From: an uncultured Gammaproteobacteria bacterium
GTDB lineage: Bacteria > Pseudomonadota > Gammaproteobacteria > UBA9214
Length of the DNA: 64,000 nt
Direction: 5' to 3'
Assembly (NCBI GenBank): GCA_963712695.1
Contig: CAVQJD010000007.1
Coordinates: forward strand, 3,221-67,220
A model generated the notes under the pieces. The model ran no database searches and was not told where the DNA came from. It was given only the letters and a program-made list of their open reading frames with translations. The translations under genes were made by a program, and so were the position numbers. Shown here piece after piece: positions 6,294 to 9,397 of this stretch; position 1 is the first letter of the stretch, and every line of letters begins with the position of its first letter.

Positions 6294-9200
6294 ATGAATA
6301 GTTACGATGAAAACAAAGGTCAGGGGTCTGGTGTCATAACGCGAGGCAGGAAACCTGTCACACCCCGGCATTACCCGCGTGCCCTGCTTATCGCGTTGAG
6401 CTATTTCGCAGTGGCCGTCGGCATGGGCCTGGCCGGTTCGCACACCGCCAGCGCAGCGGTCAACATTCCGTCGGATCTGCCGGGCAGCCCGCTTGATGGT
6501 TTCCTTGGGCAGACGATCCCGGCAGGCTCGTTCGAGCAGCAGATGCTGCGGTTCGAGGAGTTCGATGTGGACGTGCTGCCGCCACCCGGTCAGCCGCAGG
6601 CCGTGGTTTTTACGCCACCCACCACCTGTGACGGCATACCTACATCCGCTAATCTTGATGCCCTGCTGGCCGCAGACCTGTGGCCGGACCCAACCAGGCA
6701 GGCCAACGACATCCTGGACAATCCCTGGGCAGCCAAGATCGATGATTGTATTCCGGGCGCCGTCCCCAATCTGGGTGTCATCGAAGGTCGCCCGCCGGGT
6801 GAGGGTTTCGCCCACCAGCGCTGGGACGAGTTCAAGCCACGGATGTATTTCAACACCGCTATGAGTGGGGCGCGGACCAGTACCAACCGCCTCGATGCCG
6901 AGCAACGGCACACGTTACAGTGTGGGTGAGTTGGCATCCGGGCGGGCTGTATCACAACGTCGCCGGTATCCCGGCCACAGCGGGTACGGCCGCCGGTATC
7001 GATATCCGCATTCCACCCGCGACTGCCGGTCCAGGACCACAAGACCCTGTGGACCTTCGGCGGCGGGACCTTGCCGCCGAAACTGTTGCAGGCCCGTTAC
7101 GGCCAGCCCATCCTGATGCGCCACTACAACGCCCTGCCGATCGATGCCATCCGCCAACCGCGGCTTCGGTGAGCATACCATCAGCACCCACGAGCACAAC
7201 GGCCACAACCCGGCCGAGGTCGACGGCTTTACCGACGCCTATTTCTTCCCCGGCGCAGTTCTACGACTACCGCTGGCCGATGCAGCTGGCCGGCTATGAC
7301 AGCATCAATACCGATGCCTCCGATCCGCGTGCCGCCTCCCCGTGCTCACCGGGCGAGGTGAATGATTTCCAATCCCATCACCACGAGCCCGAGCCCAAGA
7401 CCTGTGATCGGACCGCACCATCAAGATCCCGGGTGACTGGCGCGAGACCATGAGCACCCACTGGTTCCACGATCACATGCTCGACTGCACCTCGCAGAAC
7501 GTCTACAAGGGCAACGCGGTCATGATGAACTATTACAGTGCTATCGACCGCGGCAAGGAAGGCTTCCGCTGCGATTACGACAGGCGTCAACCTGCGCTTC
7601 CCCAGCGGCACCGCGCTCGACTGGGGTAACCGCGACTACGACGTCAACCTGGTGGTTGCCGACAAGGCCTGGGACCCGGGACCGGCCAGCTGACTGGCAA
7701 CGTCCTGAACAAGGACGGCTTTCTGGGCGACCAGATGACGGTCAACTGGCTGTACAAGCCGTATTTCGAAGTGCGTGCGCGCCGCTACCGCTTCCGCATC
7801 CTCAACGGCGCCGTGTCGCGCTTCTTCAAATTCGCCTTCGTGGAACAGGTAGCCGGCGAGACTACCGGCGAGTTCCCCGGACCGGCCGGTTCGGGCGTCT
7901 CCTATAACCGGGTGCCGTTTCCACATGATCGCCAACGACGGCAACATCATGGAGCACGCAGTGCCGTTTCCCGATCGCGGTGTTTTCGCCTGAAGGCCTG
8001 CCGGTGCAGTCCATCGCCGAGCGCTATGACGTCATTGTCGACTTCAGCCAGTTAACACCAGGGGCCACCAGGGTGTACCTGGTCAACACCCTGGCGTTCA
8101 ATAATACCAACAATACTGGCCGGGGCCCAAGGGAGGTCATCCCGCTGGCCGACATCCTCGACGGGAACTATGCGCCGGTGCTTGATACCGATCCGGCCTG
8201 TACCGACAGATGCTGGTCGGAGGATCCGACCGTCACACGGGTTCATGGAGTTCCGGGTGGCGTTACCCAGTAGCGCCCCCGACCTGAGCATGAACCCGGC
8301 CGACTACGAGGTGGGCGGGAAGACCATGATCCCGCTGGTGCCGTTCACCCAGGCGGAACTGGACAATGCCATCCACCGCACCTTCTTCTTCGGTCGTGGT
8401 GGGTTCCCCGGTCTCGCGGCTACCGACGCTCGTCCCACACCGTGGGGCATTGTCACCGATGATGAAGTTGCTTCCACCACGCTCGACGGTTGTATCGCCG
8501 ATCCCGCTGGTGGTGAGGATGTGTGCACGCGGAATGCGGATGTCAACCGGGTCTCGGCCGCCCCGGAGACCATGGGCGATCCTGAGAACGGCATTATGCC
8601 CAGCGTGGAGATCTGGCACATCCAGAGCGGCGGTGGCTGGGGTCACCCGGTGCATATCCACTTCGAGGAAGGCCAGTACCTGGCGCGTGATGGCGCCCTT
8701 CCACCCCCGTGGGAAGTCGGTGCGCGCAAGGACATGTACCGGGTGTCGGGTCTGAACGATCCGAGCAGCAGCTTAAATATCGATGTCGCGATCCGCTTCC
8801 GCGAGTTCGCCGGTACCTACGTGGAGCACTGCCACAACACCACCCACGAGGACAAGGCCATGCTGTTGCGCTGGGACAACGAACTGCCGGGACAGACAGT
8901 GCGTATTCCCGACTCCGCTGCCGACCTGGGACGGCGTCGGCTACATCAGCGCGACCAATCCGGACCCGCACACCGGGGCCACGGCGGTTATAGAGCAACC
9001 CACTATCAAGATCGGCAATGTAGCGGTGGCGACGCTCTCCGACCTGGATAATGACGGCGTGCCGGATAACGCAGACAACTGCGTGCTGGCTGACAACCCG
9101 GGGCAGGCGGATGGTGACGGTGACCTTGTCGGCGATGCCTGCGACAACTGCACAGCTGTTGCCAATACCAACCAGCGTGATACCGACGGGGATGGCTTCG

Positions 9201-9397
9201 GCAATCGCTGCGATGCCGATTTCAACAACGACGACATAGTCGATGTACTCGACATACCGCTGTTCAGAACGGCCTTTGGCACGGCAGCACGGGATGAGGA
9301 CCTGAATGGCGACGCCATGGTGGACCTGTATCGATGTCCCCATTTTAAGAGGACTTATTTGGCCAGCGCACCGGGACCCTCGGCATTAGCCCCGTAG
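6294..9397 (+). pseudogene. CotA/bilirubin-oxidase-type three-domain multicopper oxidase with a C-terminal TSP3 plus dockerin module. The frame is broken at least four times, by sequence error or pseudogenisation.
   Basis: It is assembled from ORFs 6294-6929, 6920-7453, 7735-8055, 7980-8273, 8170-9051 and 8783-9397. Copper-site motifs in order: HEHNGHN (an HxHG-like site, reading frame near 7180), WFHDHMLDCTSQNVYKG (the HxH type-3 site), PYFEVRARRYRFRILNG (domain 2), HPVHIHFEEGQ and YVEHCHNTTHEDKAMLLRWD (the HCHxxxHxxxxM type-1 site). The tail is DNCVLADNPGQADGDGD...CDADFNNDDIVDVLDIPLFRTAFG...DLNGDAMVD. Confidence 0.6.

Follow-up and report, generated by a model that had tools for sequence, protein, structure and literature searches.

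Frame breaks in a probable McoA-type multicopper oxidase gene of an uncultured gammaproteobacterium are probably a consensus artefact of two mixed templates

The stretch of DNA analysed here (the window) comprises 64,000 nucleotides of contig CAVQJD010000007.1 from an uncultured Gammaproteobacteria bacterium. Positions 6294–9397 of its plus strand hold one multicopper oxidase gene, which has 1039 codons in its intact allele and a longest open frame of at most 293 codons in the window copy. A first-pass annotation, made from the sequence alone, had described a single fragmented oxidase gene spread over at least six open reading frame (ORF) fragments. The fragments are collinear with residues 1–1039 of a single protein and hence do not belong to different genes, but the extent of the fragmentation was underestimated: aligned with the intact ORF, the window copy falls into 22 in-register segments, which corresponds to 21 frame changes. 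The stitched cross-frame translation matches Pfam Cu-oxidase_2 at 28.5 bits (cut-off 20.4), and thrombospondin type 3 repeats are matched as well. A homologue search with the translation gave 4301 matches to the family, the best with E-values printed as 0, so the assignment is not a chance pattern. The closest homologues are ~930–1040 amino acids (aa) long and come from uncultured Gammaproteobacteria. Two other multicopper oxidases, one of the MnxG type (13206–19848) and a third at ~34352–36698, lie in the window, in agreement with the earlier count of three distinct enzymes.

The copper sites of the oxidase at 6294–9397 are as follows.

7189–7209, + strand: copper motif 1, HEHNGHN (HxH), with trinuclear-site ligands H298 and H300, both invariant in a 60-sequence alignment
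7462–7479, + strand: copper motif 2, WFHDHM (HxH), with H393 and H395
8644–8667, + strand: copper motif 3, HPVHIHFE (HxxHxH), with H791, H794 and H796
8827–8862, + strand: copper motif 4, HCHNTTHEDKAM, with H852-C853-H854, H858 and M863; type-1 copper with axial Met

As had been noticed from the sequence alone, the four regions (HxH, HxH, HxxHxH and HCHxxxHxxxxM) follow one another in the canonical order. This is true of the window copy and of the intact allele, on the plus strand and within a single frame class. The 60-sequence family alignment shows no variation at any of the twelve canonical copper ligands. An AlphaFold model of the intact protein is of moderate quality (mean pLDDT 65, pTM 0.73). 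Foldseek matches it in the PDB to a Sulfurimonas oxidase, bilirubin oxidase, CotA, phenoxazinone synthase and CueO, with E-values of 1e-17 to 1e-14, a probability of 1.00, and a target-normalised TM of ~0.5 for CotA and bilirubin oxidase. By sequence, the body of the protein matches bilirubin oxidase (E 1.8e-18), CotA and CueO in the PDB, and the tail matches thrombospondin and COMP. The protein has three cupredoxin domains, and the original description of the enzyme as CotA/bilirubin-oxidase-type is right at the level of the fold. It needs refining at the level of the family, which is probably that of the large McoA-type oxidases, with CotA and bilirubin oxidase only distantly related by sequence and fold.

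The assignment to this family was made by elimination. An ORF of ~1000 aa in Pseudomonas putida (PSE7) is 50% identical to the oxidase over 880 aa. P. putida GB-1 has two manganese-oxidising multicopper oxidases, of which McoA is one (PMC5854784; bioRxiv 10.1101/2022.11.10.515945). The ~1000-aa protein has no MnxG match and is therefore taken to be McoA, by elimination and not by locus tag; nor does the oxidase at 6294–9397 match NCBIfam NF041487 (MnxG). On this comparison of sequences the oxidase would be McoA-type: one more member of an established family, extended by a calcium-binding tail.

Four short-read contigs of the same organism, each independently assembled, served as references. 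Three (L001, L082 and L084) come from three ENA samples and one (L085) from a JGI metagenome; they were reached through the 90%-identity cluster of the best partial match, which held a 1039-aa member. The first-pass annotation had expected accurate resequencing to restore the frame, and these assemblies, which serve as that resequencing, bear it out: the gene is a single uninterrupted ORF of 1039 codons in L082, at 161–3280 of that contig, and is open as far as the contigs reach in L084 and L085. L001 (sample ERZ27256834) also keeps one frame, with a single TGG to TGA change at the near-invariant W383 (window 7438–7440, L001 1467–1469). This TGA, which would truncate the gene in that sample, is perhaps a genuine nonsense polymorphism, perhaps an infrequent error of assembly. 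Otherwise the references agree closely, with only 2 positions of disagreement among the four in the oxidase gene. We considered whether the short-read allele is itself degenerate, and rejected this, since its 8 violations in 308 conserved columns fall within the range of the family.

The window differs from all four references at the same ~138 alignment columns, which are clustered in patches. Within the oxidase gene there are 86 substitutions and 24 insertion or deletion (indel) events, mainly at 6779–7977 and 9233–9368, and none of these indels is present in any of the four reference contigs. The flanks are ~100% identical to the references, with zero differences from 5974 to ~6570 and in 9474–10088. 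Further out, 2891–6108 is 99.5% identical with 0 indels, and over the 2.5 kb of the three downstream genes there are 6 mismatches and a single indel (0.4 indel/kb). The indel rate is thus 7.7/kb in the oxidase gene versus about 0.1–0.4/kb in ~7 kb of adjacent sequence. Over a 13-kb comparison with L082, which includes 30 insertions and 21 deletions, 47 of the 51 indels share 100-bp bins with substitutions (p 3.6e-6).

The differences in the oxidase gene take a particular form, of which these are the main elements.

6779–7977, + strand: chimeric patch; ~77 of the 86 substitutions fall here, as do the majority of indels
6931–6933 (TTG), 7234–7236 (GAC) and 7486–7488 (TGC), + strand: hybrid codons in the chimeric patch, blends of reference-type and distant-type codons
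6915, 6940, 7147, 7256, 7918 and 7977, + strand: single-base insertions in the patch
8244, + strand: isolated +1 insertion; GTT (Val, reference) and TTC (Phe, in 100/113 family members) superimposed as GTTC
8911, + strand: isolated +1 insertion; CCC and CCG (both Pro) superimposed as CCCG

The substitutions are directed towards more distant members of the family. Forty-three of the 48 amino-acid changes yield a residue seen in homologues (31% by chance, p 6e-17), and 30 of the 48 yield one that is commoner than the reference residue (5.4% by chance, p 3e-26). At the variant positions of the protein, close relatives have the reference state, and proteins from Pseudomonas, Ramlibacter, Dongiaceae and Comamonadaceae have the window state. 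The same is seen in the DNA: at ~70 variant sites, distant homologues carry the window base at 47–50 and the reference base at 6–13. At 58 variant sites the P. putida homologue (L049) departs from the reference; 47 of these show the window base, against an expected one third or so. Among stretches specific to the window, CCATCCGCCAACCGCGGCTTCGGTGAGCAT (7147–7176) reads PSANRGFGEH in frame 1, and TTCCACGATCACATGCTCGACT (7465–7486) is the longest window-specific stretch there that is matched in a homologue (L034). About 28% of the differences expected from a donor appear in the window, interspersed at the scale of single bases.

Where the reference and the distant homologues differ at more than one base of a codon, the window can hold a codon belonging to neither: CGC (Arg) combined with TTC (Phe) appears as TGC, GGC (Gly) with AAC (Asn) as GAC, and TGG (Trp) with TTC (Phe) as TTG. 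The residues that these hybrid codons encode are present at their positions in 0 of 113 homologues. All eight single-base insertions resolve in two ways, into the reference allele or into an in-frame alternative codon; for those at 7147 and 7918 the neighbouring bases differ too, and one of the resolutions is only close to the reference. For five of the eight, the alternative codon specifies the majority residue of the family. These are TCCG, from TCC and CCG (Ser to Pro, 100 of 113); GCAG, from GAG and CAG (Glu to Gln, 78); an insertion combining GTC and TTC (Val to Phe, 81); GTTC, from GTT and TTC (Val to Phe, 100); and one combining GAA.AAC and CCA.TCC, with Pro-Ser as the alternative (56 and 26). 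A sixth, CGCG, from CCG and GCG, has an alternative Ala that is commoner than the reference Pro (31 vs 5), and for the remaining two the alternative codon is synonymous.

Read in register, the window copy shows no sign of decay. In-frame stops had been named in advance as the sign of a pseudogene, and there are none in its 22 segments. It violates 5 of the 308 columns that are ≥90% conserved in the family, where the family median is 5. Its overall pN/pS against the intact allele is 0.69. At conserved amino acids, ~60–70% of codons are identical between the oxidase gene and a distant homologue, and the nonsynonymous and synonymous differences between the two stand at ~2:1. It is the make-up of these real differences, between two genes that share a codon bias, that accounts for the pN/pS of 0.69.

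What could generate such a pattern? Given that the gene is intact or in a single frame in four further assemblies of this organism, we regard the 21 frame changes as most probably an artefact of assembly, in which the consensus blended two templates. In the contig, the organism's own allele would be blended at the level of single bases with another template of McoA type, more canonical and possibly the allele of another strain, a paralogue or a foreign homologue. Where the templates differ, the consensus would have taken the second base, formed a hybrid codon, or kept both bases and so created a +1 insertion. A pile-up or partial-order consensus over reads from two non-identical templates would be expected to give just such a base-by-base blend. 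We favour a mixed-template consensus because hybrid codons and insertions that retain both bases are beyond natural recombination, and because decay and random errors are undirected. Two other sources of the foreign bases were considered and rejected. Targeted mutagenesis of the kind associated with diversity-generating retroelements does not fit with the presence of all twelve substitution types without an adenine bias. The third oxidase of the window is unsuitable as a donor, with 26% protein identity and no DNA similarity outside the tail.

A true pseudogene, inactivated in the contig's own strain and decaying by frameshifts and substitutions, would account for 21 frame changes in 3.1 kb between intact immediate neighbours and for a nonsense codon in the same gene of the related contig L001; at first sight the pN/pS of 0.69 also resembles relaxed selection. 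However, decay predicts random substitutions, whereas those observed go to family-typical residues (p 3e-26, as above). The in-register copy is as conserved as functional members and has 0 stops, although ~3.7% of random nonsynonymous changes make stops. The insertions have the form of superimposed codons, and the 30 insertions and 21 deletions over 13 kb reveal no deletion bias. Furthermore, synonymous divergence of 0–1% in the flanks leaves no time for 6% neutral divergence in situ. We consider it unlikely that the gene is decaying. A chimeric, frameshifted sequence that truly exists in the cell, the outcome of gene conversion or homeologous recombination between the strain's gene and another of McoA type, would explain why window-specific bases match distant McoA-type genes, and the patchwork of the MnxG-type neighbour, which is under purifying selection, fits with natural recombination among strains. 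Nonetheless, recombination moves contiguous in-register tracts and makes neither base-by-base hybrid codons nor +1 insertions that hold both bases. In addition, only ~28% of the expected donor differences are present, interspersed singly, and no other assembly carries such an allele. Hence, we give rather little weight to a mosaic of this kind.

Plain read noise, that is, random uncorrected errors in a poorly covered stretch with no second template, would fit with indels of mostly one base and with the splitting of further genes in the window. Yet random errors would not head for the bases of homologues, as happens at 47 of the 58 sites compared with P. putida. Moreover, substitutions outnumber indel events by ~3.5:1 in the gene and ~4.5:1 in the patch, most insertions lie outside homopolymers, and there is a single indel in the ~7 kb of adjacent sequence. 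An excess of substitutions together with insertions outside homopolymers is unlike known long-read error profiles. Random noise is very improbable as the sole cause. The reading in the first-pass annotation of one fragmented gene whose frame accurate resequencing would restore is thus supported, but in place of simple read noise we put a probable consensus of two templates. The real gene is, by its sequence, most likely intact and functional.

Several observations weigh against this interpretation or the function attached to it. With a nonsense codon at W383 in L001, real or apparent, the population may include inactive alleles. None of the databases searched yielded a sequence for the second template. 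In JGI metagenomes, a search for an independent contig with the window-type variants or an in-frame second allele yielded nothing for a pattern around 8244; for one around 7256 it gave the reference-type contig already known and another species (71% identity), and nothing else. The most conserved 3ʹ region of the gene (8300–8900) shows almost no admixture, and a generic cross-mapping homologue would not obviously spare it; the second template therefore either matches the gene exactly in that region or extends over only a portion of it. With regard to function, an Mn(II) substrate is suggested by homology to a protein with genetic evidence (PMC5854784; bioRxiv 10.1101/2022.11.10.515945), and the P. 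putida homologue through which that homology runs is McoA by elimination, without a locus-tag match.

Outside the copper-binding body, the gene encodes two further features.

6294–6455, + strand: N-terminal export signal, predicted from sequence; long charged n-region, hydrophobic core LLIALSYFAVAVGMGLAG, then ASA/AV
9041–9397, + strand: C-terminal module, residues ~916–1039; thrombospondin-type-3 repeats, then two dockerin-like loop-helix repeats

In the intact protein (P0123, 1039 aa), the hydrophobic core spans residues 30–48 with ASA/AV after it, and the structure model has a lone helix at residues 30–46 followed by a disordered linker. At the other end, DxDxDGxxDxxDNC repeats precede two tandem loop-helix segments of ~22 residues, with Asp or Asn at calcium-loop positions 1, 3, 5, 9 and 12. 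The two dockerin-like repeats of the intact allele are DADFNNDNIVDVLDIPLFRTAFG and DEDLNSDTIVDVLDVPILRGLFG, and are kept in six window proteins. In the window copy they read DADFNNDDIVDVLDIPLFRTAFG and DEDLNGDAMVD..., the second being broken by 4 indels (9325–9368). Pfam TSP_3 scores 39.5 bits on the tail alone, and Pfam Dockerin_1 (PF00404) has no match to the oxidase tail at E≤1. A 60%-identical paralogous module at 33700–34461 does pass Dockerin_1 (25 bits, cut-off 22.9), and several homologues of the oxidase carry that domain in precomputed matches. The enzyme had been called dockerin-tagged. The two dockerin-like calcium loops are there, but the tail does not reach the Pfam family and contains thrombospondin-type-3 repeats too; the term is a fair description of resemblance, and not of demonstrated membership.

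The claim that this C-terminal module matches those of other window proteins held up, with 68% aa identity to 5674–6054 and 43–60% to 19507–19842, 23018–23443 and 33910–34185. In all, six proteins bear the module (1841–2659, 5674–6054, 9041–9397, 19507–19842, 22829–23443 and 33910–34185): a MauG/cytochrome-c-peroxidase-like protein, two unknowns and the three multicopper oxidases. It is C-terminal in five of them, and follows the signal peptide at the N-terminus in the third oxidase (ORF 33700–34461). No Pfam cohesin match was found among the ~35 window proteins scanned. One could speculate, with considerable doubt, that the shared tail is a docking tag of a cellulosome-like extracellular assembly that organises manganese- or metal-oxidising enzymes at the cell surface. 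The occurrence of a calcium-binding tail on six secreted proteins is the sole mildly unusual aspect of the oxidase, and belongs to the wider locus.

Two genes downstream of the oxidase bear on its function.

9742–10845, + strand: intact gene for a SCO1/SenC and cytochrome c fusion; Pfam SCO1-SenC 89 bits, Cytochrom_C 30.5 bits
13206–19848, + strand: MnxG-type giant multicopper oxidase gene, fragmented; the intact L082 copy scores 2198 bits against NCBIfam NF041487

The SCO1/SenC-cytochrome c gene has 4 substitutions and 0 indels relative to L082, and its predicted protein is likely to be a copper-delivery or redox partner of the oxidase. A family member of 1310 aa from outside the window (P0070) is a natural fusion of oxidase, SCO1/SenC and cytochrome c; because it joins the same domains, it supports a functional link between the oxidase and the gene at 9742–10845.

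The window copy of the MnxG-type gene differs from L082 by 23 indels and 329 substitutions (pS 0.167, pN/pS 0.10). Near-identical blocks alternate with blocks that are 5–10% divergent, with frameshifts superimposed. Judged by these values, it is a functional, diverged allele under strong purifying selection. The +1 insertions in this gene fall at the third codon position in 9 of 12 cases, versus ~8 by chance, which is uninformative. Downstream, at 23824–29738, are genes for a lactonase-like beta-propeller, a YtkA-like protein, a SurA-like isomerase, SCO1/SenC, and cytochrome c with a periplasmic binding protein. With the exception of the YtkA-like protein, this set matches the accessory set described for P. 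putida GB-1's mnxG operon (PMC8218464). The oxidase thus sits in a manganese-oxidation gene island, and the context supports a role in manganese oxidation. Further away, the third multicopper oxidase (~34352–36698) has Pfam Cu-oxidase_3 and Cu-oxidase_2 and is 26% identical to the McoA-type oxidase.

Splitting affects other genes of the window too. At 40109–43269 a gene for a metal efflux pump of the CusA/AcrB family is divided into at least 4 ORFs that cover successive parts of the Pfam profile, and a Peripla_BP_6 periplasmic binding protein gene at 28094–29738 is divided into 2. Fragmentation is therefore not specific to the oxidase. All of the split genes are from families rich in homologues, and their lineage-specific neighbours are clean. 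For the split CusA gene no reference from the same species was found; the closest sequence otherwise is 86% identical.

Some features of the contig stand apart from the oxidase. Identity to the same-species short-read contigs L083–L085 ends abruptly at 2891; upstream of this point those contigs encode a GspD-type secretin, and the window encodes a protein with CCP_MauG and TSP3 (44–2680). The break is either a strain-level rearrangement or an assembly join. A 174-bp direct repeat with 78% identity occurs at 11469–11639 and 12359–12532, one copy at the 3ʹ end of a gene for a 254-aa protein with a weak PEP-CTERM-like end, and the other in the intergenic region before the MnxG-type gene. A fragment of an ISL3-family transposase gene (46727–47302) overlaps the end of a fatty-acid-desaturase ORF (46129–46992).

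What might the intact enzyme do? We infer its substrate, its localisation and the role of its tail by analogy, from the observed sequence, motifs, fold and gene neighbourhood. Like canonical multicopper oxidases, it would be exported and would receive four coppers, perhaps by way of the SCO1 protein, for which a copper-delivery role is presumed. Type-1 copper (H791, C853, H858 and M863) would take single electrons from a metal or phenolic substrate. The most likely substrate is Mn(II), given a context of an MnxG-type neighbour and an accessory set like that of the mnxG operon. The electrons would then pass to the trinuclear cluster (H298, H300, H393, H395, H794, H796, H852 and H854), where O2 would be reduced to water. 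The tail probably keeps the enzyme at the cell surface or in the matrix.

For the biology of the organism, little changes. Very probably it carries an intact McoA-type oxidase, an ordinary gene, together with one of MnxG type, and Pseudomonas is already known for the same combination. For users of the contig, our analysis is a warning: for the long genes, McoA-type, MnxG-type and CusA among them, it would give wrong pseudogene calls, gene counts and selection analyses. The signature itself, namely homologue-directed substitutions, hybrid codons and +1 insertions that keep both alleles, is usable elsewhere.

How does the oxidase compare with systems that are already known? Among solved structures, CotA of Bacillus subtilis and bilirubin oxidase of Myrothecium verrucaria are the best matches by both sequence and fold, and they have in common with the McoA-type oxidase a set of copper ligands with axial Met. 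However, the McoA-type oxidase is twice as long (1039 aa vs ~510–535 aa), with a ~200-aa N-terminal extension and large insertions, and identity is only 15–23% over the aligned parts. As in type I dockerins, the tail of the oxidase has two tandem calcium loop-helix repeats; in contrast to them, it falls below Pfam Dockerin_1, and the host is of an uncultured gammaproteobacterium-like lineage that is not a cellulosome producer.

Like the window oxidase, MnxG of Pseudomonas (NF041487) is a multicopper oxidase of large size that is secreted and has a link to Mn(II) oxidation, and the MnxG-type neighbour lies in the same gene island and has the same C-terminal tail. MnxG is nonetheless another family, and the neighbour resembles the McoA-type oxidase only in that tail. 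The closest parallel is with P. putida, whose non-MnxG oxidase (~1000 aa, McoA by elimination) has the same four copper motifs in the same order. McoA of P. putida GB-1 (PputGB1_2665) has been reported to co-occur with an MnxG-type gene (bioRxiv 10.1101/2022.11.10.515945), and this is matched in the window. The P. putida homologue differs in that it is without the thrombospondin-type-3 and dockerin-like tail, the alignment stopping at residue 894. Relative to the McoA system of P. putida, the window oxidase is distinguished by its clustering with the MnxG-type gene and the SCO1-cytochrome c gene.

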